Below are positions 18,299 through 43,230 of a stretch of 64,000 nucleotides of DNA, piece by piece. How positions within the stretch are numbered: position 1 is the first letter of the stretch; each line of letters starts with the position of its first letter. The stretch comes from Escherichia coli O127:H6 str. E2348/69 (GTDB lineage: Bacteria; Pseudomonadota; Gammaproteobacteria; Enterobacterales; Enterobacteriaceae): NCBI RefSeq assembly GCF_000026545.1, contig NC_011601.1; one strand, written 5' to 3'. The position numbers and the translations under genes were made by a program. The notes beneath the pieces were generated by a model. It saw only the letters and a program-made list of their open reading frames with translations, was not told the origin of the DNA and did no database searches.

Positions 18299-18314
18299 AC
18301 GGGTGAGGTGAACC

Positions 18315-23641: not shown

Positions 23642-23653
23642 CGAGGAATTACC

Positions 23654-23893: not shown

Positions 23894-23896
23894 TTT

Positions 23897-24577
23897 ATGT
23901 CTGACCAGAATGTTAATCCGTACCTTTCCGGTGCTGATGCTGCATCGCAGCAATCGCCATACATGGCTGCACCTGTTGGCGCTGACAATGGCGCATCCCG
24001 CTTTAGCTCTGTGCCTGCTGATGCTGATTTCCTCCGTACCCAGCCCGTTAACGGTAATGATGGCGGCCAATGGAATAATGGCAGTATCGCGAATCAGCAG
24101 GATCAGAACGCTGACAGCGCCGGGGCGCAGGTGGGCGATACTATCTCCCTGATGGATGGAACAGCTATTGAGTACACCGCCGAGCTGCAAGGATTGATGG
24201 GGCAGTTTCACCAGTCTGTCGAAAGCCAGCTAGGGCAGGGGACAGTTGACGCTATGTTGCAGTACGCTGGCACGCTCGACGCCGGGACGCAATCGACCCT
24301 TGAACGGATGGTTATGTCTGGCGACCCTGCGCAGATGCAGCGGGCGGTTCAGTATCTGCAAGAGCGTATGGCTGGCGGTTCCATTACCGGTTACGTCCCG
24401 AACGGCCAGACTGCCGCGCAACCTGTCGGAATGTCACATGCTGAGTTTATAGCAGCGTATGACCAGCTTTCGCAGTGGGCGCAGCAATCAGGGTATGGCC
24501 CCGGCCATCGCCAGTACGACGAACAATACCGTGCTCTGGTTGCGCAGCGCTCCGCTGGCAAACGTGCTGGTCGCTAA
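23897..24577 (+). CDS. Gln/Ala/Gly-rich protein in the scaffold position (candidate capsid assembly/scaffolding protein)
   Basis: 226 aa, RBS AGGAG. It has a low-complexity N-terminal half and a helical C-terminal half, and lies upstream of the capsid-like gene. Confidence 0.45.
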   Translation: MSDQNVNPYLSGADAASQQSPYMAAPVGADNGASRFSSVPADADFLRTQPVNGNDGGQWNNGSIANQQDQNADSAGAQVGDTISLMDGTAIEYTAELQGLMGQFHQSVESQLGQGTVDAMLQYAGTLDAGTQSTLERMVMSGDPAQMQRAVQYLQERMAGGSITGYVPNGQTAAQPVGMSHAEFIAAYDQLSQWAQQSGYGPGHRQYDEQYRALVAQRSAGKRAGR

Positions 24578-24716
24578 CGCCCAACGGTGGAATGCGCCCT
24601 GCAAGACTGAGTGCGCACCAACCCGGTACTACCACACCAATCTAAGCGCATGAGTCCCCGCAAGCCGCATTCTGCGCGGCATCTGAAAGCCTGTTTTTAA
24701 TTAACCGAGGTTCGTA

Positions 24717-25130
24717 ATGAGTACCTGTAATTTCCATGCCGTGGTGCGTGTCGCTGACGTGCGCCCGGATTTCGCCTTGCCGCTGGGTAGATGCGACCAC
24801 ATTTACCCTGAGCGTGTGCAGCACGTTTTCAATCCAGACGAAGCGGTTTATATCGTTGCCCGGTCTGCCACATCCGGCACCCGCACATCTGGCGTTAGCC
24901 GTGGGCTTTCCCCTGTGCTGCCGCCGAAGATGGCCGAGCGGATGCGCGAACGTGAACGGCACGAGAAAAACCGAGTCAGACCCCGCAAGGTGATCACTGA
25001 GGCGATACGCGCTGACATTATCGATCGCTCTGCAAAAGGTCAGAAGAATCGTTACATTGCAAGCAAGGTTGGTGTGTCTGAAACCTCTGTGCGGAAGGTG
25101 TTGAACATGGCGCGTATGAGTGCGCACTAG
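24717..25130 (+). CDS. DNA-binding protein with a C-terminal HTH (regulator or small-terminase-like)
   Basis: 137 aa, RBS GAGG. The C-terminus NRYIASKVGVSETSVRKVLN resembles a resolvase-type HTH. Confidence 0.55.
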   Translation: MSTCNFHAVVRVADVRPDFALPLGRCDHIYPERVQHVFNPDEAVYIVARSATSGTRTSGVSRGLSPVLPPKMAERMRERERHEKNRVRPRKVITEAIRADIIDRSAKGQKNRYIASKVGVSETSVRKVLNMARMSAH

Positions 25131-25349
25131 TGCAAGGTAATACGTTCACCTTACTTCACGCGCACTAACCCCTGAGAACCGTGCCAGCTCTGGCCTCAAA
25201 ACGCCCATTTCGGGGCACCTCATTCCTCTTAATCGATACCGTTCTGAATCCTGCCTCGGCGGGAGGATTACGCACGCCCGCGCCATGACGATGGCCGGGC
25301 CTATCTCGTCAGTGAATCCGCTGGCACAACCTACGTAGGAGTTTTACAT

Positions 25350-26345
25350 ATGGCCGATAACATTTACTCGCCTGACCAGTTCCGCCCACATTATGGCGGG
25401 GTGGAATCTGACAATGATATTCACATCGAGGCTTATGACCGGGATGTCCAGACCCGTTTAGAGTCCAAATCCGTATTTCTGGCCGAGGGGCTGTCTACAT
25501 ACAGGCCGCTGAAAGCCAGCAACCAATATCGTGTTGATCGCCTGAGTGGTGATCTGGAGGTGAAGGGCAGAACCGCAGGGCAATCGCTGGAGCCTACCGC
25601 TGTTAAGTCGGATAAGCTGATTATCTCTGTGGATACGCTGAGTTATATCCGCATCCCGATTGACTATCAGGATGACTGGACAGCACCCACCTTTCGCTCA
25701 GAGCTGAGCCGCAATATCGGTACTGCTCACGCTAAATTCTACGACGAAGCGCACACCATCCAGCTAATCAAAGCGACTGACTTTGTACCGCCGCCGACGT
25801 TGCAACCAACGTTTAACCCGCTGACGGATAATGTTGTCTCGCTCGACCTGACAGCGGGGAGCGAAGAGGACGCCGCAAACGAATTGTCTCACGCCGTAAA
25901 AGCGGCTGCTAATCGCTTTCTCACTGAGAAAGATATTCCGGTGGCCGAGCTGGTACTGCTTATCGACCCGGCTTGGTTCAGCATCCTGATGGAACATAAG
26001 AAGCTGATGAACATCCGTTACAGCCGGGATAGTGGCAACGATTACGCATGGCGTCGAGTTGGCTATGTCGCTTGGGTACGAGTCATTGAGCTGAACAGTT
26101 ACCCGCAGGGAGCCATTACCGCGCATGAACTGGGCGCTGATTATAATGTGACCGCAGGGGAAGCGCTGACACGGGCGACGCTGTTCCGGCCTGCGTCTGT
26201 ACTTGTGACAGTCGAAGCGCAGAGCGTCATCAATCGCCAGTGGGATGAGGAACGCGAAATGACAATGGTGATGGACTCATATCGCCTGTTCAATGTTGGG
26301 CTGCGCCGCCCGGACTGCGTTATCAATTTCCGACAAGCTGCATAA
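25350..26345 (+). CDS. major capsid protein, T7 gp10-like (HK97 fold, no delta domain)
   Basis: 331 aa, RBS AGGAG. Block-wise resemblance to my recollection of T7 gp10A: FRSELSRNIGTAHA / VRSEYTSQLGESLA, LLIDPAWFSIL / FYCDPDSYSAIL, and C-terminal FNVGLRRPDCVINF / AMGHGGLRPEAAGAVVF. Confidence 0.55.
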   Translation: MADNIYSPDQFRPHYGGVESDNDIHIEAYDRDVQTRLESKSVFLAEGLSTYRPLKASNQYRVDRLSGDLEVKGRTAGQSLEPTAVKSDKLIISVDTLSYIRIPIDYQDDWTAPTFRSELSRNIGTAHAKFYDEAHTIQLIKATDFVPPPTLQPTFNPLTDNVVSLDLTAGSEEDAANELSHAVKAAANRFLTEKDIPVAELVLLIDPAWFSILMEHKKLMNIRYSRDSGNDYAWRRVGYVAWVRVIELNSYPQGAITAHELGADYNVTAGEALTRATLFRPASVLVTVEAQSVINRQWDEEREMTMVMDSYRLFNVGLRRPDCVINFRQAA

Positions 26346-26361
26346 CTGGAGGGGCTGAGTC

Positions 26362-26871
26362 ATGGTTAATGATGCTTACGCCCCTGAGCTGTTGCGATCC
26401 CTTTTCCTGTATGACCCGGTGACAGGTCGCCTGCACCATAAAGCTAGCCGATGCCGGGTTACGGCTGGCTCCTATGCTGACTCCACCCGGCGAGCTGATG
26501 GCTATCGTCAAGTTGCCCTGCGACTGGATGGCAAGCAGTACCAGCTAAAAGCCCATCGCGTAGCGTGGATTCTTGCGCATGGTGCTATTCCCCACGGTAT
26601 GCAGATCGATCACATCAACGGTACCCGTGACGATAACCGCTTATGCAATCTGCGATTGGTTACGCAGCGGGAAAACGACCAGAACCGACGCAAGGCAAGG
26701 GGGTATAGCTGGAATAAGGGCTGTAGCAAATGGGAGGCTTACATACGCGTTGGTGGTGTACTCCGTCACCTTGGCTTATTCACATCCGAAGCGGCAGCTC
26801 GTGCTGTGTACCTGAAAGCTAAAGCCAGATACCACCCCTCAACGCCTGACGATTTATTGCAGGCTGCCTAA
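26362..26871 (+). CDS. HNH homing-type endonuclease with an AP2 DNA-binding domain
   Basis: 169 aa with HRVAWILAHGAIPHGMQIDHINGTRDDNRLCNLRLVT (HNH_3 type) followed by WNKGCSKWEAYIRVGGVLRHLGLFTSEAAA (AP2-like). Confidence 0.8.
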   Translation: MVNDAYAPELLRSLFLYDPVTGRLHHKASRCRVTAGSYADSTRRADGYRQVALRLDGKQYQLKAHRVAWILAHGAIPHGMQIDHINGTRDDNRLCNLRLVTQRENDQNRRKARGYSWNKGCSKWEAYIRVGGVLRHLGLFTSEAAARAVYLKAKARYHPSTPDDLLQAA

Positions 26872-26889
26872 CCCTCGGAGGTTCCATTA

Positions 26890-27315
26890 ATGGCTGATGA
26901 AAAGCCGATTAGGTCGCTGGCAGGTGATGACCCACGCCGCCAGCAGTACGCCGAACTGTTGGCGCAGGCTAGCCGCATGACTATTCCCCGGCTGCATCCG
27001 GGCGATGCTAACAGTGTGATGAGTCAGCTTGCAACGATGCTTGGCGCACCTGTCCCGATAGTCGGTGCTATGACTGAGCACGCCGCTGCATGGCGTGCCT
27101 GTCTGCTTGAGCAAGGACTTGGCGAGCTTCTGGATGGCTTGAGTAAACAGGTGCTGACCATCTTCTTTCTGCTCTGCTGGAGAGACAGCGCCTTGCGATT
27201 GGCTGGTAAGCAAAAGAAACGGCTTACAGCCGCCAGCGAGGGTTTGACCATTGAGCAATACCGGGCAATGCACCCGGCTTACAGAGAGGATAAAGAACAT
27301 GATAACCACGATTAA
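26890..27315 (+). CDS. hypothetical protein
   Basis: 141 aa, RBS GGAGG 8 nt upstream. Confidence 0.55.
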   Translation: MADEKPIRSLAGDDPRRQQYAELLAQASRMTIPRLHPGDANSVMSQLATMLGAPVPIVGAMTEHAAAWRACLLEQGLGELLDGLSKQVLTIFFLLCWRDSALRLAGKQKKRLTAASEGLTIEQYRAMHPAYREDKEHDNHD

Positions 27316-27598
27316 ATTAAGGTGGCGGTACATCGAGACGCCGCCAATGACTGGCGCACTCGCTGACCTGAAACAGTGGGTAATGAATGCCGTAGAGCCT
27401 GAGCTTGAGGCTGAATTTCGTAAGCTGCTGGGGCAGATGCGTCGCAATGGTATCAGTGATGGGCGCGTAAATGCGGTGGCTGATGAGCTTTATGCTCTGG
27501 TATGCCAACGCCAGCGCGAAGAATACGAAGCCTGCAAGCGGGCTGCCTCTGACAATGGAGACTTTGAATCATGGTTACACGGACAGACCAGCTACTAA
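27299..27598 (+). CDS. hypothetical protein
   Basis: I prefer the start at MITTIKLRW (27299), which has RBS AGAGAGGA upstream, over the track start at 27251. 99 aa. Confidence 0.5.
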   Translation: MITTIKLRWRYIETPPMTGALADLKQWVMNAVEPELEAEFRKLLGQMRRNGISDGRVNAVADELYALVCQRQREEYEACKRAASDNGDFESWLHGQTSY

Positions 27599-27996
27599 GA
27601 AAAGCTATGAGGGGCTATCTGGAACACCTTGGCAACATGCCGCTGGCGGAACGGATTACAAATGCTGCTGTATTCGAAGATGTGTATCGCTTTTTGTTGA
27701 ATGGTTCCGGGCGGCTGGAGCTGCGCCGCGCTGACGTGGCTGCCGTCCGTGTCTTCCTTTGGAACTATCAATACCGCCGCTGTGCTGTGACAGGTAAGCC
27801 GCTGCGCCTTGCGTCTGCCGTTCTGGATCACTGCCACCGAACCGGGCGCGTGCGTGCTGTGGTGCATCGTTCTGCTAACGCTGCTGAGGGAGGCCGCTAC
27901 GTTGGGCGGACGTGTGGTGTTAGCGTTACGAATCTAAGGGCTATGATTGGCAGCTATCGCAAGCAATACACTGGTATTGGCATGTTATATCCATAA
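27571..27996 (+). CDS. endonuclease VII-family (HNH-like) nuclease
   Basis: 141 aa. CAVTGKPL...VLDHCHRTGRVRAVVHRSANAAEG resembles the Endonuclease_7 motif (C-x2-C ... DH-x-H-x-TG-x-VRG..C..CN..G). Confidence 0.6.
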   Translation: MVTRTDQLLRKAMRGYLEHLGNMPLAERITNAAVFEDVYRFLLNGSGRLELRRADVAAVRVFLWNYQYRRCAVTGKPLRLASAVLDHCHRTGRVRAVVHRSANAAEGGRYVGRTCGVSVTNLRAMIGSYRKQYTGIGMLYP

Positions 27997-28037
27997 CTGC
28001 GGGGTAATAAACCCCGCCGAAATAGTAGCGTAGCCAC

Positions 28038-28940
28038 TCAAACAGGAATGTTGTAGTAATGACAAATTGCATTAGTTAGTAGAGCTGGTGCAGCAGACGC
28101 TGCAATATTTAGCGTCCCCGCATATGCTTTACCAATCATATTTACAACCCACTTCCCAAGGCTATCACTGAAATTGTCCGGGGTAGTTGGGGCGGGTGAT
28201 TCTTGTATAGCTTGATGAAGGCTCTTAATATCTTCATCATTAGCGCCCCAATCCTTGAGCTGCTTTTCAAGCGAGTTGAAGTCTCCAGCGTTGACAGTAT
28301 TATTTTGTGAAATGTCCCCGTTACCAGAGCCAATAACGCCAGCATTGTTTACGTTGCCATGAATGTTGGTCACGTTATGGACAGTCATTGGCGCTACCTC
28401 TTTTTCTCTTAATGAAAACTGTAACCCTTCGCCTAAAATACCCTTTGACTCTAAGTCTAAAGACCAGTCGAGGATCTTATTCCTAACGGTAGTAATTACA
28501 TGTTCTAGTACACCAGCGCTTATAACCCATACCATCTCAGTCTTTTGTCCGATACTTTGAGCTAATGTATCAGCCATCCAATCCGGGAGAGGTAAAAAAG
28601 GGTTTTCTCCTTTATTGCTCATCTTTTTTATAGATGATATTGATTCTGTAATGTGAAACGTTGATACCATTGCATTTAATTCCGCGTCGTTGAAGTTGAC
28701 CACAAGCGGAACCCAGCTCTGATGTTGGGGACTATATGCTTTTAACTGCGATTGACCTTTCCTGTATTCAGGAACCGTATCAAAGCTGGGATAGCCATTT
28801 AATTCGAGCTGTATCCACTCGGTCAAATCGCTGAGGCCGAGCTTCACTGCAATCATTTTGGCCTTCATGAGTACAGATAAAATGTCGGAGTCGGGATCGC
28901 ACGCTAGTGCTTGAAGTTCAAGAACTGGTGAGTTAGCCAT
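28038..28940 (-). CDS. AbiTii-like abortive-infection family protein
   Basis: 300 aa. The N-terminus LELQALACDPDSDILSVLMKAKMIAVKLGLSDLTEWIQLELNGY matches the AbiTii N-terminal pattern as I recall it. It lies adjacent to the integrase. Confidence 0.55.
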   Translation of the reverse strand: MANSPVLELQALACDPDSDILSVLMKAKMIAVKLGLSDLTEWIQLELNGYPSFDTVPEYRKGQSQLKAYSPQHQSWVPLVVNFNDAELNAMVSTFHITESISSIKKMSNKGENPFLPLPDWMADTLAQSIGQKTEMVWVISAGVLEHVITTVRNKILDWSLDLESKGILGEGLQFSLREKEVAPMTVHNVTNIHGNVNNAGVIGSGNGDISQNNTVNAGDFNSLEKQLKDWGANDEDIKSLHQAIQESPAPTTPDNFSDSLGKWVVNMIGKAYAGTLNIAASAAPALLTNAICHYYNIPV

Positions 28941-29027
28941 ATCAAGACCTTAGTATTGTTTTGATAAGGTATCTTACCCGCATCGAACCATGCAGTCTAA
29001 GGTTCGCAGGCCAAACTCACCCATGAG

Positions 29028-30239
29028 TTAGATGTTTATTCCTTCATGCTGGATGAGTTCGACATACTTACCGATCTCTATAGGGGAAGCTGCATTTTTC
29101 GAGTAAGTTTTGAAGCTCTCTGTACTCCCGCGCTCATGACCGACGAGCAGGGCAATACGATCTTCTGGCACTTGAGCACGGTCGAGCTGTTGCACAAAAG
29201 CATGGCGGAGTGAGTGAAACACTTTTCTCTCTGCGGCAGGCTCGCCAAGAGCTTTACGCTTTGCTCGCGTGAATTGCTGCGTATGCCACGTTGAGCGCTT
29301 CCCATCGGCCCGGTCTGTTATTGATGCGTGATAGAACAGAAAACCGCTATGTGTGGTCTTGAGCAATGACTTCACGAGAGGGATTATCTTGCTGTGTACA
29401 GGGACGATTCGCGCCGCGCTCTTAGTCTTCCCCTCGGTGATCTCAAAGCACAATATACCCTCGATAGTTTTAATACTGCTTTCACGTAGCGTACATATCT
29501 CATTGATCCGCATACCGCTGTATGCACCAATAGCCGTTACCGCCTTCATCTCGTCATCAAGCAAGGCATAGACCTTTGCCAGCTCTCCCGGTGCGAAGAC
29601 TTCATAGCTGACCTTGCTGCTTTTTGCTTCGAGCGCATGACCGCGCCAAGGATTGTCCTGTGGTGCATCGTGATAGCGATTGCGTGCCAGATCCCATATC
29701 TGCGCCAGTGCGCTTATATAGTTTTGGATAGTTTGGGGCGCTCGCTCAGTTTTGAGCTTATCTAACCAGCCTGTAACTATGGTTCGGTTAATATCCCGCA
29801 ACTGAACATCTTTCTTTTTCAAGTGGGTTAACAGCACCTCTACGGCTTTGTTGGTCTTGGATAACGTGGTTAGCTTTCGCTTCTCGCTGTATTGAAGCAG
29901 GTACAAATCACGCATTTTTAGCAAGGAAGGGCAAGCCTGAATCGATGCACCAAACGATGCGGGGGCTTCCTTGGCGTACACACTGACACGGCGTAGCTCA
30001 TCAATGATTTGGTCTACAGATGAGCCGCCTTGTGGCTTTAGCAGATTCCGTAAGCGAGTCCATTCCAGAGCAATAGCATCTCGAAACAATCGCGCTTGGC
30101 GTATGTCTCGTGTTCCTGTGCTTTTCATAAAGTAGCGCTTCCCTTGGAACAGGTGGCGCATATAGCTGGGAATAGCTATCCGCACGAGGTAATTCCCGCA
30201 GGGATCTAAAACTAGATAACGATCTCTCTTGAAACTCAT
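29028..30239 (-). CDS. tyrosine-type site-specific integrase
   Basis: 403 aa with a catalytic set consistent with R (SGMRINEI), HSLRH, LVGH and a C-terminal Y (FKTYSKN). Its start lies 133 nt from attR. Confidence 0.9.
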   Translation of the reverse strand: MSFKRDRYLVLDPCGNYLVRIAIPSYMRHLFQGKRYFMKSTGTRDIRQARLFRDAIALEWTRLRNLLKPQGGSSVDQIIDELRRVSVYAKEAPASFGASIQACPSLLKMRDLYLLQYSEKRKLTTLSKTNKAVEVLLTHLKKKDVQLRDINRTIVTGWLDKLKTERAPQTIQNYISALAQIWDLARNRYHDAPQDNPWRGHALEAKSSKVSYEVFAPGELAKVYALLDDEMKAVTAIGAYSGMRINEICTLRESSIKTIEGILCFEITEGKTKSAARIVPVHSKIIPLVKSLLKTTHSGFLFYHASITDRADGKRSTWHTQQFTRAKRKALGEPAAERKVFHSLRHAFVQQLDRAQVPEDRIALLVGHERGSTESFKTYSKNAASPIEIGKYVELIQHEGINI

Positions 30240-30372
30240 ACAAACCCCGGTTATGTTGTCGGGGCTTTTTCATGGCTAAACAGTCTGTGAAATGTGCCGG
30301 GGTCATGAGCTTTAGTCTAGCTAGTTCAACAAGTTAACGATGATTGTTGAAGCAAGCTAAGTCGCTATAACC

Positions 30373-30403
30373 CGTGCCGGTTCGAGTCCGGCCTTCGGCA
30401 CCA
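30373..30403 (+). repeat. attR core: displaced copy of the leuX 3' end
   Basis: Exact 31-bp copy of 15312-15342, with no upstream tRNA body. Confidence 0.9.
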
Positions 30404-30419
30404 CATCGTATGCAAATCG

Positions 30420-30443
30420 AGTCGCTCAAGGGCGGCTTTTTTT
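30420..30443 (+). terminator. probable native leuX rho-independent terminator, now at attR
   Basis: Hairpin agtcgc (30420-30425) / gcggct (30432-30437, one G-U pair) followed by T7, 17 nt after the repeated CCA end. Confidence 0.65.
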
Positions 30444-30627
30444 GTGTCTGGGATCCATTAGTTACCTATCTTTCTCGCTATTTTAACTCTCTCAGAGCCA
30501 ACCAATTTCAACCCATCGCAAACGAAAAATGTTGGTACAGGCGTTGGTATTTTCGGTTCGATATTAATTTGTATTAGCTCAGTCCTGATCTGACAGCTAT
30601 CTGCCAGATCAGGTTCGGATTAATACA

Positions 30628-33600
30628 TTATATCTGCCCGCCTACACCTTTAAACTTCTCAATAAACGCGACGATCTTCTGGAAAACCGTCTGTTTTTTC
30701 GTCTTATATTGCGGGTTTAACGGACTGAGTTTTGGCAATGTCTCGTTTAATTCCGTGCCATTTTCGGTGGCGTATTCGCGTTTTAAAGACGTGCGAATAT
30801 AGCGTTTCGCCGCCTCTTCATTGAGATTTTCTTCTTTAATCAACGCTTCTGCTTCACGTTGCTGTTCGCGTTGAGCAAAGGTAAAGAACGCGTCAATGAT
30901 GCTGGCTTTATCCGGCAAATCATCCAGGTTCGTTTGCTGAATAAAATCGACCACCAATCCTTCTTTAGCACGGTTCCCAAGGCTTGAACGAATTAAGCGT
31001 TTGACCTCTTCGGTCATTTCGCCCTTACCTTTGTTTTGTCTGTTGTGTTCGAAAATCAGTCCAAGGATATAATCCAGGTTTATTTCCTGAGACTTCAGCA
31101 AATCGACCTCAAAAACCACGTCATCCCAGTCGGTGGTTGATTTTTCTTTTTTGTCAGCTTCTTTCTCACGGCGCTGCCAGTCACGAATATCGTTATAGGC
31201 AGAACGATAATCCTGAATCTTGCGTTCAGCAGGGAGACGAATCGTTTGCAATTCAGCGAACTTTTCATCATCCACATAATGTTCTGCTTTGAATTTTTCT
31301 ACTGCAACAGGATCGCTAAGATCGATTTGTTGCAGGGCTTTCAGCGTGGCAAATTCATCATAGTTTTGCAGGATGTTCTCGGCACGCAGGTATTCACCAA
31401 ACAGTTTAACGAAGTCTTTCTTCTCTTTTTCACTTTCAATACTGGCAGGGTCAGGGAACCGTTGTTCCAGTTCTGCAACTACTGCCATAAAGCCGCGCTT
31501 AGCTTCACCAGTAGCAGCATCAGTAAAGCCTTCCATATACTCTGCATAACTCTTTTCTAACACTACATTTTTGGTGTTTTTGTCACCAAACAACGTTATG
31601 GCATCGATGGTTGAGCGTTCCAGATCGCGGAAAGTGACGATATTACCGAAGGTTTTAGTAGCGTCATAAATGCGGTTGGTGCGGGAAAATGCCTGCATCA
31701 GGCCGTGAAAACGCAAGTTTTTATCGACGAATAGCGTGTTCAATGTTGGAGCGTCGAAGCCGGTTAAAAACATCCCCACGACAATTAATAGATCGATATC
31801 CTGATTTTTAACCCGTTGGGCTAAATCACGATAGTAGTTCTGAAAACCGTTACTGTCGGTGCTGAAGTTAGTTTTAAAATAGCTGTTATACTCACGAATT
31901 GCAGCATCAAGAAACTCTTTAGCACTGCTGTCCATTGCGCTGGTATCAAAAGTTTCATCAGAAATTTCACCAATGGCATTTTGTTCTTCATTGGCGGTAA
32001 AGGAGAAGATTGTCGCAATACGCAGCGGTTTATAGGTAGCCGATTTATTAGCGGCTTCTTCTTGTAACCGTTTAAACGTCGCATAATAGGCTTTCGCGGC
32101 ATCCACGCTGCTCACTGCCAACATAGCATTAAAACCTTTTGAGCCAGGGAAGGTACGGTGGGTTTTCTGGCGGAAATTATTCAGAATATATTGCGTGATT
32201 TCCTGAATACGCATGGGATGAAGAAACGCCTGCTGATTTTCAGCCGCACTTAGTTTTTTCTCGTCAGTTTCTGTCTCTAAAGACTTAAACTGTGGTCGCA
32301 CATCGTTGTAGTCCACCTTGAATTTGAGCACTTTTTCGTCACGAATCGCATCGGTAATTACATACGAATGCAATTCACGACCAAATACGCTGGCGGTTGT
32401 TTCTGAGCCTAAGGCGTTTTCCGGGAAAATAGGGGTGCCGGTAAAACCAAACTGATAATAGCGTTTGAATTTCTTCTTCAGGTTTTTCTGCGCTTCTCCA
32501 AACTGGCTGCGGTGGCATTCATCAAATATAAACACCACTTGCTGATTATATACAGGCAGGTCGCTTTCTGCTTTCATCAGGTTATTGAGTTTCTGAATAG
32601 TAGTGACGATAATTTTGTTATCGTCCTTATCCAGATTTCGTTTAAGGCCTGCGGTATTTTCCGAGCCGTTGACGCTGTCTGGCGAAAAACGCTGATATTC
32701 CTTCATGGTCTGGTAATCGAGGTCTTTCCTGTCGACCACAAAGAAGACTTTATCAATAAAGTCCAGCTCTGTTGCCAGACGCGCGGCTTTAAAGCTGGTG
32801 AGGGTTTTACCAGAACCGGTAGTGTGCCAGATATACCCACCGCTTTCCGGTTTTGACCAGTTCTTCGCTGTAAAGGAACTCTTAATTTTCCACAGAATGC
32901 GCTCGGTGGCGGCAATCTGGTACGGTCGCATCACCAGTAGCGTCTGACTACTGTCAAAAACGCTGTAGTTCACCAGAACATTCAGCAGAGTATGTTTCTG
33001 GAAAAAGGTAGCGGTAAAGTCTTTGAGGTCTTTAATCAGCGTGTTGTCTGATTTCGCCCAGTTCATGGTGAAGTCAAAACTGTTTTTATCGCGCTTTGTC
33101 GTGTTGGCAAAATAACGGGTATCGGTGCCGTTAGAAATGACAAACAGTTGCAGATACTTAAACAGGGAATTTTCGCTGTTAAAACTCTCTTTACTGTAAC
33201 GATGTATCTGGTTGAAAGCCTCACGAATCGCCACCCCGCGTTTTTTTAGTTCGATTTGCACCAGCGGTAAACCATTAACCAGGATCGTGACGTCATAACG
33301 GTTAGCATGAGAACCCGTCTGTTCAAACTGCTGGATAATCTGCACCTTATTGCGCATGAGATTCTTTTTATCTATCAAATAGATGTTCTCAAGTCGCCCG
33401 TCGTCAAAAATAAAGTCGCAGATATAGTCGATATGGATTTTACGGGTTTTATCCAGAATACCATCGCTGGGGTTGTCCAGATACTGCTCCGTGAAGCGCC
33501 GCCACTCGCTGTCATTAAACATCACACCATTGAGGCTCTGAAGCTGTTCCCGAACATTAGACAGCATTGCCGACTGTGATTTTACGGAAATAAATTCATA

Positions 33601-33744
33601 ACCCTGATTCCGCAGGTCCTGAATCAGTTCACGTTCCAGGTCCGATTCGCTCTGGTAGCTGTCGCTTGTTTGCTCAGCTTTGATGTACTTATCAAGGACG
33701 ATAAAGTTATTGGATTCAGCAATGGTGTGTGTTTGATGAGTCAT
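30628..33744 (-). CDS. hsdR: type I restriction enzyme R subunit, type IC (EcoR124I family)
   Basis: 1038 aa, near-identical over its length to my recollection of EcoR124I HsdR ([24 protein letters not shown]...). Motifs TGSGKT and FDECHRS. Confidence 0.95.
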
Positions 33745-33865
33745 AGCGCATCCTTTGTGCCGCCTGGCAAGAGCCGGAAGGGCGTTAAGAGTGACTTCCG
33801 GCGCGTAAAAAATAGTCTATATACTGACCGGGTGTTAAGGTGGCCCGATCGGTAGCAATGGTCAA

Positions 33866-35088
<1,223 letters not shown>

Positions 35089-35092
<4 letters not shown>

Positions 35093-36645
35093 TTTTGCAC
35101 CTCGCAGCCTTCAATTTCAGCCACAATCGCATCAATATCTTTACGCAACTGGTCGATTTTGCTAACCGTAGTTTTAAGCTCTGCATTTAGCTCAGCAATA
35201 TTGATAATTTCGCGGTTATCTTTCGCTTCTACATAGCAGCTCACCGACAGGTTATAGTCATTAGCGACAACGGTCTCAAACGCGACAGATTTCGCCAGAT
35301 GAGCAACATCTTCCTTGCTGGCAAATACCTGCATAATCTGTTCGATATGGGCATCGGTCAGGATATTGTTGTTGGTCTCTTTTTTGAATAGTTCGCTGGC
35401 ATCAATAAACTGAACTTTGGTATCCGTTTTATGTTTAGACAGCACCAGAATATTTACGGCAATGGTGGTGCCAAAGAACAGGTTCGGTGCCAGTGAAATC
35501 ACGGTTTCGACATAGTTATTGTCAACCAGATACTGACGGATTTTCTGCTCCGCGCCGCCACGGTAAAAAATGCCCGGGAAGCAGACAATCGCAGCACGAC
35601 CTTTGGCAGAAAGATAGTTCAGCGCATGTAATACAAACGCAAAGTCAGCTTTGGATTTGGGGGCCAGAACGCCAGCCGGGGCAAAACGCTCATCGTTAAT
35701 CAGCGTCGGGTCATCGCTGCCAATCCATTTCACCGAATACGGCGGGTTAGAAACGATGGCATCAAACGGTTTTTCATCTCTGAAGTGCGGCTCAGTCAGC
35801 GTATTGCCCAGCTTGATATCAAACTTGTCGTAGTTGATGTTGTGCAAAAACATGTTCATACGTGCCAGGTTATAGGTCGTATGGTTGATTTCCTGTCCGA
35901 AAAAGCCTTCTTCAATGATATGGTTATCAAACTGCTTTTTAGCCTGCAACAACAGTGAGCCGGAACCCGCTGCCGGGTCGTAGATTTTGTTAACGTTGGT
36001 CTGCCCGTGCATAGCCAGTTGTGCAATCAGCTTGGAGACGTGCTGCGGTGTAAAGAACTCACCGCCTGACTTACCGGCATTTGCCGCATAGTTAGAAATC
36101 AGGAACTCATAGGCATCACCGAACAGGTCAATCTGATGTTCGTTGAAGTTACCAAGTTTTAACCCTTCAACCCCTTTCAGAACCGCAGCCAGGCGGGCAT
36201 TTTTATCTTTAACGGTGTTACCCAGGCGGTTACTGGTGGTATCGAAATCAGCAAACAAACCTTTGATGTCTGCTTCTGAAGGGTAGCCGTAAGCAGAACT
36301 TTCGATAGCAACGAAGATGCTGTTTAAATCTGCATTCAGTCTGTCATTGGTATTTGCTTTCGCCGCTACGTTGCAGAAAAGCTGACTGGGGTAGATGAAG
36401 TAGCCTTTAGTTTTGATGGCATCGTCTTTAATATCATCAGTAATTACGCTGTCATCCAGTTTCGCATAACAGATACTGTCATCACCGGCTTCAATATAGC
36501 TGGAAAAATTTTCGCTGATAAAACGGTAGAAAAGCGCGCCCAGAACGTATTGCTTAAAATCCCATCCATCGACCGAACCTCTGACATCGTTAGCAATTTG
36601 CCAGATTTGGCGATGAAGCTCCGCGCGCTGCTGAAGACTGGTCAT
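35089..36645 (-). CDS. hsdM: type I N6-adenine DNA methyltransferase M subunit
   Basis: 518 aa with motif [11 protein letters not shown] and motif IV NPPY ([10 protein letters not shown]). Its stop overlaps the hsdS start. Confidence 0.95.
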
Positions 36646-36951
36646 TTTTTATCCTTTGAATGTGTTTTTAACGTCGGCTTTTGCCGGGATTTTACCGGAA
36701 GTTTTTTGGTTTTTCAGATTTGTATGATGGTGAGGAGGGGATTCAGTACCAGATTGTTAGTGCATCTTATTCAGCATTCACCGTTTGAGTCAGGAGGCTA
36801 TTTTATATGCCCATCGCCCATCCGTAGGTGATCAGATAATTTATTGCGAGTCACCTTCCCGATTTTCAATCTCATTATTTACCCAATATTTCACCAGAGG
36901 ATAATCCGTCTGCTACTAACGGCGAGTGTATTTTTTTACGGATGAAAGATT

Positions 36952-37785
36952 ATGCAAACAGAAGCTGAAGTCTTAACCGATCACAACGAGATAATTCGCT
37001 CGACCAATATTGAGCGTATCGTCACAGGACGTGATAGCGCACTGAAGCTGATAGCGACGCTAATCCAAAAACTGGATGATATCTCCAGTCTGACATCCAG
37101 TATTGGCGGTGATGTGGCTGGAACCTGGGGAATGCGTAATGGATATGCCTTTGACTGCTGGCTGATGCAACCAACCGACAAAGCGATGTCGGCGATCACC
37201 CGCAATATCGATCGCAGCATCTGGCGCGATCTCATGCTGAAGTCCGGGATGTTGACTCTGATGGATGCCGAAGCCCGCAGTCAGTGGGCAAAGAACCTGG
37301 AGGAGGGCGATCTCCCGGCGATTAGCGAAGCCAACATCCTGAGTACCTTTGAACAACTCCACCACAATAAGCATGATGTTTTCGAACGTGGGATTATCAA
37401 TGTATTTAAGGGATTGAGCTGGGATTACAAAACCAATAATCCCTGTTATTTCGGTAAGAAGATTATCGTTAACAATCTGGTGAAGCATGACCGATGGGGT
37501 TACAGCCTGCACTGGGGCTGGCGGCGAGATCAGCTTGCCGATCTGGAACGGATGTTCTATCTGCTGGATGGGAAGGCCATTCCCGATAACCGGCATGATG
37601 TTGCGATTCGGTTTATGGACTTCGTTAGTGCTCACCCGCATGAGCAGGTATTTAATGACGATTTATTTGTCATCCGCTATTACCAGAAAGGCAGTGGACA
37701 CATCACATTCAAGCGACTGGATCTGGTGGATAAGATGAATGACATTGTGGCGAAGCACTATCCGTCAGCGTTATCAGCAAAATGA
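36952..37785 (+). CDS. DUF4942-like protein, unknown function
   Basis: 277 aa, divergent from hsdM. The C-terminal pattern FVIRYYQKGSGHITFKRLDLVDKMN resembles DUF4942-type proteins as I recall them. I see no catalytic motif. Confidence 0.5.
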   Translation: MQTEAEVLTDHNEIIRSTNIERIVTGRDSALKLIATLIQKLDDISSLTSSIGGDVAGTWGMRNGYAFDCWLMQPTDKAMSAITRNIDRSIWRDLMLKSGMLTLMDAEARSQWAKNLEEGDLPAISEANILSTFEQLHHNKHDVFERGIINVFKGLSWDYKTNNPCYFGKKIIVNNLVKHDRWGYSLHWGWRRDQLADLERMFYLLDGKAIPDNRHDVAIRFMDFVSAHPHEQVFNDDLFVIRYYQKGSGHITFKRLDLVDKMNDIVAKHYPSALSAK

Positions 37786-38146
37786 ATGTCGTATGTTTGC
37801 TGTCAAAATGTCGTTACTGGAACCCTCTGAATTTCGGCATATCCATTTACTGGAAATAATACCTACCTGAAAAACCGTTGATTCCCTATGCAACTAGAAA
37901 CCGCACACAGGTTGAAAAAACGAGTAGCTATTTTACGTCTGAAAGAATGCTATAGCCTTCTCTGAGAGCCACCAACATCATGCGTTTTGCAGTTCAAAGT
38001 CATCAGATAAATGTGGTGGCTCCAGGGCAGAAGGTAATTTCAGGATGAAAGTTATTTTTTTTATCACAAAATTTAACATTTTTGAGATTAATCCGATAAG
38101 ATAAGGCTATCCCAATTTCCCTCCCCCCTACATATTGGATTAAGAG

Positions 38147-40201
38147 ATGGTTCAGGATTCATCAGCATTAGCCCCTTTCTTTCGTGCTCAAATTGAAAAA
38201 AATAATCAATACAATTCAGTTTGGGGCAAACACTACCGCGAGCTTGTAGAACAGATTCAGGCCGAAAAACCAAACTTTTCTGAAGCCACGATTCGGCAGG
38301 TATGGTATGAACGTGACAATGGTGTCTCCAGCCTGATGCAAGGTGGGATGTCATTGGTTGAATTTGAAAATGCACAAAAAGACCTTCTAACGCTCACCCG
38401 TCAGATAGCAGAAGAGTGTACACAAGAAAATTATAATCGGGTCATTGAACGTCTTATCAAACTTAAAGCGGACGGAGTATTAAATAAGGTATATAGGGCT
38501 CTTTGTAATCGTGCTTTTGCAGCAATATACCCATCAAAAATTAGCAGTGTCGTGAATGTTAATAATTTTTTTAGTTGCTACAATTATTGCAACAACCATT
38601 TCCAGCTAGGTCTTTCCGGAGAACGGGAGTGGCTGGCTCGCAATGTTGATCTTAAAGAAACGCTAAATCGTGCGCTGGGTGATGATATCGACCCTATTGA
38701 GCTGAATATGTCACTTTGGCATCTCTATGCGTATGAAATTCAGGATAAAAATGCTATCGGTTTAGTTGGAAGCGAAAGTGCTTTACAAGAAAATGAGCAA
38801 GAAGATGATGTTATAAGTTCGCCATTGCCTAAAAACACAATTCTCTATGGCCCGCCAGGTACAGGTAAAACATATCGTACTATTGAGCTTGCTGTACAAA
38901 TTTGTGATCCGATCGCTTACTCCCTGCAGGAGGGTAAGGATGAGAGTGAAAAACGTCGCGAGTTGAAAAAGATTTATGATCAGCTTATCAAAGATAATCG
39001 AGTGCGTTTTATCACCTTTCATCAGAGCTTTGGTTATGAAGAGTTTATTGAAGGTTTAAGAGCTGAGACTACTGATGACGGTAATGTAAAATACGAAATA
39101 AAGGCAGGTATTTTTAAACAGATATGCGAGGATGCCGCCTTTGGTCATGCTGGTGCGCAGGAAATGTTGGATAGCGCACTTACTCGCCTACAAGAACGTT
39201 TATCTGAAGGTGAAAATATCACGCTGGAAACACAACAGGGTAAGGCCTTCCAGCTGACGTATAAAAGTCAAACCAACTTTGGAATTTTTCCGTCACAATC
39301 GAAAAAAGAGGATTTAGGACAGGGTTACAATGCCTATTTGAAGGATATTCGGCAAGTTTATCAGGATCCACGAGCAAAAGTACATAATCCATCTTATGTA
39401 CGCAGTATCCTTAACTATTTAATTAATCAACGTTATCTGCCTCTGAATACTCAGAGCGTAGCTTCAGAAAAAAAGGAAAACTATGTTCTCATTATTGATG
39501 AAATAAATCGGGGTAATATTTCAAAAATTTTTGGTGAACTAATTACCCTTATTGAGCCATCTAAACGGGCTGGTGAGCCAGAATCGCTTAGCGTATTGCT
39601 GCCATACTCTTCCACTCCATTTAGTGTACCGAATAACCTTTATTTAATTGGTACCATGAACACTGCTGATCATTCGCTTACTGCACTTGATACTGCACTA
39701 CGTCGCAGATTTGATTTTGAAGCGATGCTGCCAGATATTACTGTTCTGAAAGATACTGTCATTAAAGGTATTGATCTGCCTCGTCTATTGCAGACGCTTA
39801 ACGATCGCATCCAGGTTTTATACGATAGAGAACATATGCTGGGGCATGCTTTTTTTATCCCTGTTGTGCAGGCAAAAGAAGACGAAGCTCTGGCATTTGA
39901 AAGATTCAAACGGATTATGCGAAATAAGATACTACCATTGCTGGAAGAATATTTTTACAATGACTGGCAAAAAATTCGCATGGTACTGGCTGATAACCAA
40001 AAAGAGGAAGCACCAGATCTTCAATTTGTACGTGAGGTGAAATACCAGAAAAAGTATGCCGATCTCTTTGGTGATAACGGAACAGATGACTTGGGAACCA
40101 GTTTTCACCTGGCAGCAGAGGATGACAACGTTTGGGACAATCCAATCGCCTGGCAGCAAATTTATGCACCTCAAAAAGAAAAACGCAGGAGTGCGGAATG
40201 A
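38147..40201 (+). CDS. McrB-family AAA+ GTPase with a non-canonical N-terminal domain and an internal insertion
   Basis: 684 aa with Walker A GPPGTGKT (aa 235-242), FITFHQSFGYEEFIEG, Walker B YVLIIDEINRGN (aa 446-457) and the McrB signature MNTADHS. Confidence 0.85.
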   Translation: MVQDSSALAPFFRAQIEKNNQYNSVWGKHYRELVEQIQAEKPNFSEATIRQVWYERDNGVSSLMQGGMSLVEFENAQKDLLTLTRQIAEECTQENYNRVIERLIKLKADGVLNKVYRALCNRAFAAIYPSKISSVVNVNNFFSCYNYCNNHFQLGLSGEREWLARNVDLKETLNRALGDDIDPIELNMSLWHLYAYEIQDKNAIGLVGSESALQENEQEDDVISSPLPKNTILYGPPGTGKTYRTIELAVQICDPIAYSLQEGKDESEKRRELKKIYDQLIKDNRVRFITFHQSFGYEEFIEGLRAETTDDGNVKYEIKAGIFKQICEDAAFGHAGAQEMLDSALTRLQERLSEGENITLETQQGKAFQLTYKSQTNFGIFPSQSKKEDLGQGYNAYLKDIRQVYQDPRAKVHNPSYVRSILNYLINQRYLPLNTQSVASEKKENYVLIIDEINRGNISKIFGELITLIEPSKRAGEPESLSVLLPYSSTPFSVPNNLYLIGTMNTADHSLTALDTALRRRFDFEAMLPDITVLKDTVIKGIDLPRLLQTLNDRIQVLYDREHMLGHAFFIPVVQAKEDEALAFERFKRIMRNKILPLLEEYFYNDWQKIRMVLADNQKEEAPDLQFVREVKYQKKYADLFGDNGTDDLGTSFHLAAEDDNVWDNPIAWQQIYAPQKEKRRSAE

Positions 40202-41508
40202 AATCTTCCAGTCATTTCACTGTGTTCGAATACGGGCATTTAGTGAGTGAGGAAGGTGATGCCCGTATAAATAATGCGGTAGTGCTACCTGCAGACCTAT
40301 TTAAATGGCTTGAGCTGCGCTGTCTGAAAGACGATGCTGATAATACTCATCGTTTGCTCACCCTTAGCAGCCGGAATGGAGTAAAAACGCTGCAGGTAAA
40401 AAACTATGCAGGAGTAATCTCACTGCCAGGGGGGCGATTTCTCGAAATCCTGCCTAAAACAGGTCAGGATAATGAGGATACTGTTCGTCAACAATTACTG
40501 ATGATGTTACGTACGTTAAAATCATTTCGTCATATTGCCTCCTCTGAATCTGGCGTCAAAATATCTAAAATGCCTCTGATGGATATCTTTATTCAACAAT
40601 TTATAGAGAGCGTGCGTAAGATTGTGCAGAGAGGGTTAAAACGTGACTATTTACGTCAGGAAGATAATCTTCCATGGATGAAAGGAAGATTACGGATCTC
40701 TGCACAATTAAGCAAAAACTGTATTAGGCGGGATCGTTTTCAGGTGGAGTATGACGAGTACAGCGTCAATCGTCTGGAAAACCGGATACTCAAAACTGCA
40801 ATCAATAAGATTAGTCGCCAGACCAGTAATCCACAATTATTACAGCAGATAACACAGCTGCAGTTTCACTTTGAAAATATCACGTCAGTTCATGATGCTT
40901 ATATAGCTTTCGAGCAGTTACACTTTGATAGACAAATGCATCACTATGAGCAAGCATTAGCGTGGGCGAAGATGATTTTATTGGGCGATTCTCCACACTG
41001 TATGTATGGGGATGTTAATGCTTTTTCACTGCTTTTCCCGATGGAGGCTGTTTTTGAATCTTTTGTGACGACATGGATGCGTTATCGTTATTATGATAAA
41101 TGGCGAGTGGACGCACAGGTAAGTTCAAAAAATCTGATTAGTTATAACGGTAAAGCTTTATTTAAGCTGCGGCCTGATATTTGTTTACGGCCTCGTAAAA
41201 GTACTACTGGTTCAGTTATTACCTGTGATGTTAAATGGAAGATAGTAAATGGCAGAAAGGACAGTCTTGAACAATCTCAAGCCGATCTCTACCAAATGCT
41301 TGCCTATGGATTGAATTACCAGGAGGGGGAAGGTGATATGATTTTGATATACCCCTATCATAACGGATTTAATCAGCCATCTCCTCATCCTTATGAATTT
41401 AGCCATCAGAAGGAAAATAGGTTACGTTTATGGGTTGTACCTTTCTTTATTGGCGAGAGTTTACAAACATCAGAGTTGCGTTTTCCTGGTGGGGCTGAAT
41501 TTATTTAG
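40198..41508 (+). CDS. McrC-like nuclease subunit
   Basis: The ATG at 40198 overlaps the mcrB-like stop (ATGA) and has RBS AGGAG 6 nt upstream. 436 aa with a PD-(D/E)xK-like LRPDI...CDVKWK. Confidence 0.8.
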   Translation: MKSSSHFTVFEYGHLVSEEGDARINNAVVLPADLFKWLELRCLKDDADNTHRLLTLSSRNGVKTLQVKNYAGVISLPGGRFLEILPKTGQDNEDTVRQQLLMMLRTLKSFRHIASSESGVKISKMPLMDIFIQQFIESVRKIVQRGLKRDYLRQEDNLPWMKGRLRISAQLSKNCIRRDRFQVEYDEYSVNRLENRILKTAINKISRQTSNPQLLQQITQLQFHFENITSVHDAYIAFEQLHFDRQMHHYEQALAWAKMILLGDSPHCMYGDVNAFSLLFPMEAVFESFVTTWMRYRYYDKWRVDAQVSSKNLISYNGKALFKLRPDICLRPRKSTTGSVITCDVKWKIVNGRKDSLEQSQADLYQMLAYGLNYQEGEGDMILIYPYHNGFNQPSPHPYEFSHQKENRLRLWVVPFFIGESLQTSELRFPGGAEFI

Positions 41509-41570
41509 TATTTGTAGGCTATCTCTTTATACAATTTATTTGTCTATTTGTATGCACAAAATAGCCTACC

Positions 41571-42443
41571 TCACCCCCTAAAAACCTCTTTCCGATGCCA
41601 CTCTACAAACACCTCATAAGGGTAATTTTTACGTACCTGCGGCAAAGCAATAGTTTTCCCGTCAAAATCCCAGAATAGTTTCTCAACGATCCCTCCGCCG
41701 TTTACCGCATCTGATACCAGTACCCGCATATTTTCGTCCAGGCCAATCGATCCTTTATCAAAGGCTTTATGGTGAATTGCGCAAAGCGCCAGGCCATTAG
41801 GAATTTCACAAGGACCGCCGTGCTGTTTCCATTTTATATGCGCCGCTTCAAGCGCGACGGTGGTGTCGTCGTGGCGCATATTAAAGCCACATATCGCGCA
41901 CTGGTAGTTATAAGCGCGTAATACATTTTTGCGAAATAACGGGTCGCGCTGTTTACGGATTTGCTGGAGGTCAAAACCCAATTCGTCAGCAATTTCCTCC
42001 TGAATACTCTCGGTAAAATGCGCTTCGAGTATCTGTTGCGCCAGGGTATTGATGAGTTTTTTATTGCCGGTTACCAGGGCGTAGTGCTGTTCATCGAAAC
42101 CGCCTGCAACGCGGTGTTCGGTCAGTTCCTTCACTGGCGGTTGTCGGCTGCTCCCTGCTGTTGAGCAAAGCCCGGCATTGTGTAATTGCCAGAATCCGTC
42201 GCCTTGTAATCGCCAGAACGGCATATCAGGTCGGTACTGTGAACGCTGTGGCCCAAAACGTTCCAGTAAACTGTGCAGAGGTTCGTAGATTTCCGAGCCA
42301 TAATCGAAAAGGCGCGGATGTCCATTCAGGTATCCCGCTAATACGTATAGCAATAACAATGGCTTATGCGGCGCGCGCTGTTCACCCTTGTGCCAGATTT
42401 TTATATTGGCAATTGCCTGCTGTAGCGATTTACTGGAAGCCAT
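41571..42443 (-). CDS. HNH (HNH_2-type) endonuclease with an N-terminal putative modified-DNA reader domain
   Basis: I prefer the start at MASSKSLQQ (42443, RBS AGGGA). The C-terminus is YQCAICGFNMRHDDTTVALEAAHIKW...NGLALCAIHHKAFDKG. The N-terminus has RAPHKPLLLLYVL ... PFWRLQGDGFW. Confidence 0.7.
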   Translation of the reverse strand: MASSKSLQQAIANIKIWHKGEQRAPHKPLLLLYVLAGYLNGHPRLFDYGSEIYEPLHSLLERFGPQRSQYRPDMPFWRLQGDGFWQLHNAGLCSTAGSSRQPPVKELTEHRVAGGFDEQHYALVTGNKKLINTLAQQILEAHFTESIQEEIADELGFDLQQIRKQRDPLFRKNVLRAYNYQCAICGFNMRHDDTTVALEAAHIKWKQHGGPCEIPNGLALCAIHHKAFDKGSIGLDENMRVLVSDAVNGGGIVEKLFWDFDGKTIALPQVRKNYPYEVFVEWHRKEVFRG

Positions 42444-42579
42444 TGATATCCCTGGCAGTGAAATAATTGCGATCATGCTCGCAAATTTTCTTCTGTTCAA
42501 GCCTGCAAGTGAAGATATATTACTTTGATCTCATTTGTTTTTTTGCTGCCTGCTCTGAGAACGTATAAGGATATTCCCC

Positions 42580-43230
42580 ATGAATAAACTTCCCGACCAT
42601 CTTCCGCGGCGGTATATCATCGAAGCTATCCATTTATGGGATGCGGGAGAAACTCATCAGTTCCAGCCTGCACGGTTGTATTAGATTGAATATCATGGCC
42701 GACGTTACCCCTCGAAGGCGATTGCTGGCATCGCAGCGACATTGATGACGGGGACGCAATTTACCCCTGCGGATTTCACCGGCGGAATAAAATCTAAATG
42801 CGTCAAACTACTCATAGAGCAGGGATTTCATATTCATCAGGATAAAGCCGCTGCGGCTCCCATAGCCGACGTTCTGTTCCCGGATGAGTTGCCGTCGCAG
42901 GAGACCTACGTTGAAGGTGCGGCGATAAAGGTGACAGTAAACCGCTATGAACGCGATAAAAAGGTCCGAGATAAAGCGGTCGAATATCATGGATGCCAGT
43001 GCAACGTATGCGGCGTTGATCTGGTGAAGATCTATGGTGATATTGCTGAAGGCTTTATCCATATGCATCACCTGGTGCCGCTTTCAGCCATTAAAGAGGA
43101 TTACCAGCTGGATCCAGTTAATGATTTGCTGCCTGTGTGTCCTAATTGCCATGCGATGTTGCACCGACGCAAACCACCGTTTACGCCGGAGGAGTTAAAA
43201 GCGTTGATGGATGCGAATAAATCAAATTAA
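42580..43230 (+). pseudogene. McrA-like HNH endonuclease interrupted by an in-frame TAG at codon 35
   Basis: ATG at 42580 with RBS AAGGA. The frame runs MNKLPDHLPRRYIIEAIHLWDAGETHQFQPARLY-TAG(42682-42684)-IEYHGRRYPSKAIAGIAA... and continues into track ORF 42742..43230, which carries CQCNVCG...HMHHLVPLS...LLPVCPNCHAMLH. Confidence 0.7.

Follow-up and report, generated by a model that had tools for sequence, protein, structure and literature searches.

The best described relative of the gene considered here is EcoWI of Escherichia coli W, a phosphorothioate (PT)-dependent restriction endonuclease of type IIM/IV in which a sulfur-binding domain (SBD) is joined to an HNH nuclease domain (Lutz et al. 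2020, PMC7461809). EcoWI is a dimer that uses Mg2+; it cuts GpsAAC/GpsTTC at N7/N6 to leave a 1-nt 3′ overhang, acts better where there are two modified sites, and blocks transformation by the dnd+ plasmids of E. coli B7A and Salmonella Cerro 87 (PMC7461809). The EcoWI family has a CxxC/CxxH zinc finger and an H-N-H triad (PMC7461809). A second point of reference is ScoMcrA of Streptomyces coelicolor, whose target is GpsGCC, and which has a preference for Mn2+ and cleaves at variable distances of ~23 bp (PMC7461809, PMC6224610). Its sulfur pocket is made by H116, R117, Y164, P165 and A168 (Liu et al. 2018, PMC6224610). We have analyzed a gene that lies in a stretch of 64,000 nucleotides of the enteropathogenic E. 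coli O127:H6 str. E2348/69 (NC_011601.1), referred to below as the window. Its product is very probably a single-chain modification-dependent restriction endonuclease of the SBD-HNH (EcoWI-like) family, with a dependence on PT that is predicted by homology.

A sulfur-binding domain joined to an HNH nuclease

The open reading frame, on the minus strand, runs from an ATG at 42443 to a stop codon at 41573–41571, and its intact frame encodes a protein of 290 residues and 33.1 kDa (Table 1). The RefSeq record NZ_CP059840.2, a chromosome sequence of E2348/69, is 100% identical to the window, and has at the identical coordinates the coding sequence (CDS) H4J01_RS21415, whose product WP_000168585.1 is named ‘phosphorothioated DNA-binding restriction endonuclease’ in RefSeq. 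Because this name is correct, and because a close relative has been characterized, the biology of WP_000168585.1 is already known; the guess of sulfur binding that was made in an initial annotation of the gene, drawn from the sequence alone, is supported. Upstream of the ATG the frame is open as far as a TTG at 42500, use of which would give a protein of 309 residues. This TTG falls within a conserved –35-like TTGAAC hexamer, and the ATG is the start both of family conservation and of the PGAP annotation. Comparison with the E. coli 1303 allele (97% identity) reveals 15 synonymous and five non-synonymous changes, corresponding to a dN/dS ratio of 0.089. Thus the gene is genuine and subject to purifying selection, rather than an open reading frame that arose by chance.

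The protein matches the NCBIfam model NF045808 (PT-DNA_restrict) over almost its complete length, scoring 437 bits where the cutoff is 180, with positions 2–284 of the 284 in the profile aligned to residues 6–289 of the 290. In a single-sequence search (phmmer) the N-terminal ~140 residues align to the SBD of ScoMcrA (5zmo) with E = 9e-6. Using a profile of 26 homologues (hmmsearch), the SBDs of ScoMcrA (5zmo, E = 2.4e-9), SprMcrA (7cc9, E = 4e-6) and Hga (8h0l, E = 3.6e-4) are all found. An AlphaFold (AF2) model was built from 26 close homologues with 72–98% identity; its predicted local distance difference test (pLDDT) values are moderate (70–92) over most of residues 30–160, and lower at residues 15–22 and 61–70. 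When the model is compared with the PDB by Foldseek, SBD structures occupy each of the top 15 places, led by 5zmo_A with a target-normalized TM score of 0.83 and a root-mean-square deviation of 2.8 Å over 157 columns. The matches after the top 15 are noise, with E above 0.6. Close homologues bear the precomputed Pfam assignments PF26340 (DNA-SBD_ScoMcrA) and PF13391. The Pfam set used here was without the SBD model PF26340 and the head model PF26345, and HNH_2 was the sole Pfam match, as it was for the protein of E. coli W. The initial annotation had pictured a ScoMcrA-like reader fused to an HNH domain, possibly of the sulfur-binding type, had proposed comparison with the SBD and SRA structures of ScoMcrA and SprMcrA, and had held that a lack of structural similarity to known readers, together with a lack of modification-dependent cleavage, would speak against the idea. 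The SBD is matched by sequence, profile and fold, while the SRA is not matched, and the superposition on 5zmo_A provides the structural similarity.

Might the protein nevertheless read a modified base (5-methylcytosine (5mC), 5-hydroxymethylcytosine (5hmC) or 6-methyladenine (6mA)), in the manner of the SRA domain of ScoMcrA, or of EcoKMcrA or TagI? Its HNH domain does resemble that of TagI, which is modified-cytosine-dependent, and ScoMcrA cuts 5mC and 5hmC DNA via its SRA domain in addition to restricting PT-DNA (PMC7461809). Yet the similarity to TagI (6ghs) is confined to residues 169–249, and no match to SRA, McrA N-terminal or winged-helix domains was found for residues 1–160 in Pfam, NCBIfam, PDB sequences or Foldseek. 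The SBD fills the whole N-terminal half, only ~20 residues lie between it and the HNH domain, and there is no space within 290 residues for a further base reader. Over the same four sources there is no SRA (PUA-like) domain of ScoMcrA type between SBD and HNH. Neither the ScoMcrA_N ‘head’ domain nor a modified-cytosine-binding N-terminus of the EcoKMcrA/TagI type was found in the polypeptide, whose SBD alignment with the profile already begins at residue 5; a head-like domain is instead present in the divergent neighbouring gene. EcoWI itself gives only low nicking of Dcm+ pBR322 in Mg2+ (PMC7461809). With no matching domain, reading through an SRA, or of 5mC or 6mA, has been rejected, and the lack of an SRA argues that the E2348/69 protein does not read 5mC or 5hmC. 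We give the modified-base alternative almost no credence. Thus of the two kinds of reader that had been envisaged, for a modified backbone or a modified base, the SBD matches bear out the former, and no similarity was found for the latter.

The C-terminal part had been assigned as an HNH_2-type nuclease, and Pfam agrees (HNH_2, E = 5.7e-10, 39.3 bits with a cutoff of 21). The motifs on which the initial annotation was built are all present in the translation: RAPHKPLLLLYVLAGY at residues 23–38 and RPDMPFWRLQGDGFWQL at residues 71–87 in the N-terminal part, and CAICGF (residues 182–187), ALEAAHIKW (197–205) and NGLALCAIHHKAFDKG (216–231) in the nuclease. A zinc site is made by C182-x-x-C185 together with C221-x-x-H224, and the predicted catalytic residues are H202, N216 and H225. 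The triad and the zinc ligands are invariant or nearly so over 119 close homologues, the sample over which all residue conservation was counted. The region of TagI similarity, residues 169–249, aligns to the HNH domain of 6ghs with E = 8e-6.

Sulfur pocket, base-reading loop and target context

Both of the segments that form the sulfur pocket of ScoMcrA have counterparts in the E2348/69 protein (Table 1). P75, F76, W77, R78 and W85 are invariant among the homologues, while position 74 is methionine in 115 and leucine in four. The structural core is retained, with P28–L31, F76, W77, L79 and W85 corresponding to P118–L121, F166, W167, L169 and W175 of ScoMcrA. Where the pocket differs from that of ScoMcrA, at K27, M74 and R78, the substitutions are ones experimentally known to keep or improve the binding of PT-DNA. 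The position of R117 in ScoMcrA is lysine in most SBD homologues, and R117K still binds; Y164 is variable, and Y164M gives stronger binding; A168 is also variable, and A168R is tolerated (PMC6224610). The putative base-reading loop, residues 97–101, is one residue longer than that of the E. coli W protein. Position 98 is missing in 51 of the 119 homologues, and variation is also found at positions 100, 104 and 105. It is in this loop and its flanks that an otherwise conserved SBD varies.

How closely is the protein related to EcoWI? E. coli W has a single gene of the NF045808-type family, adjoining the leuX integrase, and its product WP_000199891.1 has a computed mass of 33.41 kDa. The published predicted mass of EcoWI is 33.4 kDa. 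As both the enzyme name and the mass agree, we infer that EcoWI is WP_000199891.1. A full-length alignment of the E2348/69 protein with WP_000199891.1 gives 76% identity and contains one single-residue gap, which lies in loop 97–101. The HNH core is better conserved (82.7% identity) than the SBD (72.5%), and residues 90–110 have 66.7% identity. In the comparison with the W allele dN is 0.18 and synonymous changes have reached saturation, and thus the two are old paralogous lineages and not minor alleles.

With moderate confidence we expect the target context to be GpsAAC/GpsTTC, as for EcoWI. Five SBD-HNH enzymes read GpsAAC/GpsTTC even though their identity to EcoWI is only ~28% (PMC7461809), and the context is therefore likely to be kept at 76% identity. 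In favour of a similar cleavage geometry, the linker between SBD and HNH is equal in length to that of the W protein.

On the basis of these homologies the enzyme would work as follows. The SBD would dock on duplex DNA such that the Rp sulfur of the phosphorothioate enters a small hydrophobic pocket, with P75 as its floor, H26, M74 and R78 as its walls, and K27 making a salt bridge to the phosphorothioate. Neighbouring bases would be read from the major groove by loop G97–Q101. The protein is probably dimeric, and its zinc-stabilized HNH (ββα-metal) domain is predicted to use Mg2+ and to cut both strands close to the modified site, at a constant distance from it. By extrapolation from EcoWI, the likeliest target is GpsAAC/GpsTTC, cut a few nucleotides away as in its N7/N6 cleavage. 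The role in the cell would be to destroy plasmid or phage DNA that enters with Dnd-type phosphorothioation, a modification that is not expected to be made by the host. The annotation of the 64-kb window has no dnd or ssp genes, the leuX island being included, which is the usual site of Dnd systems in E. coli, and the rest of the E2348/69 genome not having been scanned; the published co-occurrence of such enzymes with dnd clusters is under 3.6%. E2348/69 is predicted to resist the uptake of Dnd-modified plasmids and phages.

A number of points weigh against this reading of the gene. In the AF2 model the HNH half has pLDDT below 50, so that the nuclease fold is taken from the sequence matches. 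The equation of EcoWI with WP_000199891.1 was drawn from the name and the mass, no accession being given in the EcoWI publications examined. A consensus promoter scan, with a threshold of 9 of 12, found none upstream of the gene. E2348/69 has glycine at position 91 (codon 42171–42173), where 115 of the 119 relatives and ScoMcrA have glutamate; this change may attenuate the enzyme. G91 sits just ahead of the putative base-reading loop. Lastly, the E2348/69 and W proteins are paralogues of long standing and not near-identical alleles, with an SBD identity of only 72.5%, and the putative base-reading loop of the E2348/69 protein differs by the additional residue and in its flanks (VK for RR).

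The last of these points raise the possibility that this is a true SBD-HNH enzyme with a PT context or cut distance unlike those of EcoWI, reading for example GpsATC or GpsGCC, or being a more promiscuous reader. The one-residue indel and the changed flanks are in the very loop whose aligned counterparts read bases in ScoMcrA and SprMcrA; positions 98, 100, 104 and 105 vary within a domain that is otherwise conserved; and the identity to the W protein is lower around the loop than over the SBD as a whole. Indeed, SBDs do differ in sequence-context specificity (PMC7470945, PMC10602919). Against this, the five enzymes that are so much more distant from EcoWI have kept its context (PMC7461809), very close relatives of the E2348/69 protein show both loop lengths, and the linker is as long as in the W protein. 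GpsAAC/GpsTTC is moreover the PT context reported from E. coli B7A and Salmonella (PMC10602919, PMC7470945), DNA of the kind that the host most likely meets. We consider a changed context or cut distance possible but unlikely, and favour an enzyme that shares its target with EcoWI.

Partner gene, upstream palindrome and the leuX island

Divergently placed from the SBD-HNH gene is a reading frame of 216 codons for a ScoMcrA_N (‘head’) domain and an HNH nuclease. In E2348/69 it has an in-frame stop at codon 35, whereas it is intact in E. coli 1303. Residues 24–87 match residues 29–93 of the ScoMcrA head (5zmm) with E = 5.6e-5, and the C-terminus matches the HNH domain of EcoKMcrA (6ghc). The arrangement is as if the head and the SBD of ScoMcrA had each joined an HNH nuclease of its own. 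The same divergent pair, ScoMcrA_N-HNH (211–216 residues) with SBD-HNH, recurs in Citrobacter and Klebsiella, with partners that are 65–71% identical. Since the flanking genes there are unrelated, this suggests a mobile two-gene cassette.

Between the two genes is an 18-bp inverted repeat, TTGCGAGCATGATCGCAA, which overlaps a –10-like CATGAT that is spaced by 17 nt from the –35-like TTGAAC. The repeat and the TTGA upstream of it show little or no variation among six lineages (E. coli, E. coli W, Salmonella, Citrobacter, Klebsiella and Enterobacter), in contrast to the other intergenic DNA, which diverges. The genes that carry it comprise both orthologues and paralogues, the putative EcoWI gene included. 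It occurs once in the window, where 0.04 sites are expected by chance. The –35/–10 proposal was taken from this cross-genus conservation, and scores 8 of 12 in the consensus scan. Overlapping a plausible promoter, TTGCGAGCATGATCGCAA is a candidate operator or leader hairpin.

Taken together with the loop, these features permit a bolder interpretation: that the E2348/69-type clade is a distinct PT reader, with another context or cleavage geometry supposed from the longer base-reading loop, which perhaps forms a two-gene cassette with the head-HNH nuclease and the invariant 18-bp promoter palindrome. If true, this would be a regulated two-nuclease type IV module, of which no description was found in the EcoWI/SBD literature examined. 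We regard it as rather unlikely.

Table 1. Features of the SBD-HNH gene and its surroundings. Positions are those of the window except where a locus number precedes them.
Feature	Position	Strand	Evidence
Complete CDS, predicted SBD-HNH phosphorothioate-dependent restriction endonuclease	41571..42443	-	Open reading frame; NF045808; PGAP; 76% identity to E. coli W protein
SBD, residues ~1–160	41964..42443	-	Matches to 5zmo, 7cc9 and 8h0l; AF2 and Foldseek; PF26340 on close homologues
H26-K27-P28, first pocket wall (ScoMcrA H116-R117-P118)	42360..42368	-	Alignment to 5zmo; invariant in 119/119
M74-P75-F76-W77-R78, pocket floor and lid (ScoMcrA Y164-P165-F166-W167-A168)	42210..42224	-	Alignment
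G97-S98-S99-R100-Q101, putative base-reading loop	42141..42155	-	Aligns with ScoMcrA S187RGRR191 and SprMcrA H102/D104, register ±1
HNH_2 core, residues 182–236	41736..41900	-	Pfam PF13391; 6ghs alignment; conservation in 119 sequences
Inverted repeat TTGCGAGCATGATCGCAA, 18 bp, 24 nt upstream of ATG, candidate promoter/operator	42467..42484	-	Cross-genus conservation
–10-like CATGAT	42472..42477		Cross-genus conservation
–35-like TTGAAC	42495..42500		Cross-genus conservation
Divergent partner, ScoMcrA_N (‘head’) + HNH, 216 codons, pseudogene	42580..43230	+	Translation; PGAP ‘internal stop’; homology
Partner genes at other loci examined	L007:4181-4831; L010:4224-4859; L014:3183-3821; L020:3224-3859
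leuX island	15258..43230
tRNA-Leu gene leuX	15258..15342
DUF4942 gene	36952..37785	+
mcrB	38147..40201	+
mcrC	40198..41508	+
Remnant in K-12 MG1655, between yjhR and nanS	L004:8032-8237
C-terminal remnant in LF82	L006:7001-7405
DUF4942 gene in Salmonella leuX island	L011:7726-8559

The gene marks the far edge, towards nanS and fim, of the island inserted at the tRNA-Leu gene leuX, known as the E. coli defence island ‘hotspot #37’ (PMC12707154). In E2348/69 the island contains an integrase, AbiTii, a type I restriction-modification system (hsdRSM), a DUF4942 gene, a McrBC-like pair, the SBD-HNH gene and the broken HNH gene. The same hotspot houses Dnd systems in other E. coli strains, and so PT ‘writers’ and PT-dependent ‘killers’ appear to share the island across strains. 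The DUF4942 gene lies between hsdM and mcrB. In Salmonella leuX islands DUF4942, CbtA/CbeA and ParE toxin-antitoxin genes are found within a few kb of a W-type SBD-HNH gene; the proximity of DUF4942 may just reflect shared island cargo.

The neighbouring McrBC-like genes deserve consideration, for the SBD-HNH protein might be a subunit of a larger system with them. The gene is convergent with mcrC and only 62 bp from its end, and this junction is common to 539 genomes. However, the SBD-HNH gene itself is present in ~1700 genomes, and its neighbours elsewhere are different, with Zorya II, type III restriction-modification, type VI secretion, PstI-like restriction-modification, and SymE or 5′-nucleotidase genes beside it in other strains and genera. 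EcoWI, moreover, works alone under heterologous expression (PMC7461809). A partnership with McrBC was rejected on this variation of neighbours between strains and genera, and we judge it highly improbable. The best-supported reading is that the SBD-HNH gene is a stand-alone module. The McrB protein itself has 684 residues, compared with 459 for the K-12 McrB model. For its N-terminal ~220 residues, presumed to be the DNA reader, there was no significant match in Pfam or PDB, with only a sub-threshold DUF7198, and a PDB search with 233 residues was at chance level.

How general is the gene in E. coli? Of 5426 complete genomes, 1706 (~31%) carry 80% or more of the CDS, and the EcoWI-type paralogue is found in 187 (~3%). 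NZ_CP026085.1, labelled ‘E. coli strain DH5alpha’ (4.83 Mb), contains the E. coli W gene with 100% identity; as this is not expected in a K-12 derivative, the label may be wrong. Some part of the E2348/69-type gene is retained in 4871 of the genomes. K-12 MG1655, for example, has a frameshifted remnant of ~70 codons, and LF82 a C-terminal remnant. That so many genomes keep fragments while only 1706 reach 80% suggests that a gene long resident at this site has been eroded repeatedly with the turnover of the island cargo.

It might then be asked if the E2348/69 copy is itself attenuated or inactive, on the way to the decay that is seen at this site in many strains. The private E91G change at a nearly invariant position would fit with this, as would the divergent partner that is already a pseudogene, the fragments in K-12, LF82 and many other genomes, and the upstream region in which no promoter passed the consensus scan. 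Against it, the reading frame is intact, with all the pocket, zinc and catalytic residues present, the dN/dS of 0.089 was obtained against a common allele, and the conserved –35/–10-like elements and the palindrome are intact upstream. Attenuation is decidedly unlikely in our view, and we expect the E2348/69 gene to encode an enzyme that would be active in vivo.

Comparison with described enzymes

TagI and EcoKMcrA (6ghs, 6ghc) share with the E2348/69 protein a related HNH domain, but their N-terminal readers are unrelated to the SBD, and serve for modified cytosine and not for the backbone. SprMcrA of Streptomyces pristinaespiralis (7cc9/7ccd/7ccj) has the same SBD-HNH layout and a homologous SBD (TM ~0.7). 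In contrast to the E2348/69 protein, its pocket comprises Y31/Q32/Y78/P79/A82 in place of H26/K27/M74/P75/R78, and it has an H-N-R triad, is inactive in Mg2+ and cuts at a variable distance (PMC7461809, PMC7470945). ScoMcrA (head-SBD-SRA-HNH; 5zmm/5zmn/5zmo) has a homologous SBD of ~20% identity with an equivalent pocket, and a C-terminal HNH nuclease, and itself restricts PT-DNA. Of the two proteins only ScoMcrA has the head and SRA domains, and the HNH of the E2348/69 protein is of the HNH_2 subtype.

The enzyme most like that of E2348/69 is EcoWI. The two have the same two-domain layout and nearly the same length (290 and 291 residues for the E2348/69 protein and EcoWI, respectively), and belong to the same NCBIfam family, with the HKP...MPFWR pocket motif and the HNH and zinc residues in common. 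Taking EcoWI to be the product of the W gene, both genes also have the conserved upstream palindrome and are located in the leuX defence island. They differ in position, the E2348/69 gene being at the nanS end of the island and the EcoWI-type gene beside the integrase, and in the divergent ScoMcrA_N-HNH partner of the E2348/69 clade, of which there is none at the W-type loci examined in E. coli W and Salmonella (L003, L011-L013). They differ too in abundance, the E2348/69 type being ~9 times commoner in E. coli (1706 and 187 of 5426 genomes). EcoWI is the reagent of EcoWI-seq (PMC9521924), and the commoner clade could provide a second reagent for the mapping of PT if its specificity or fidelity differs.

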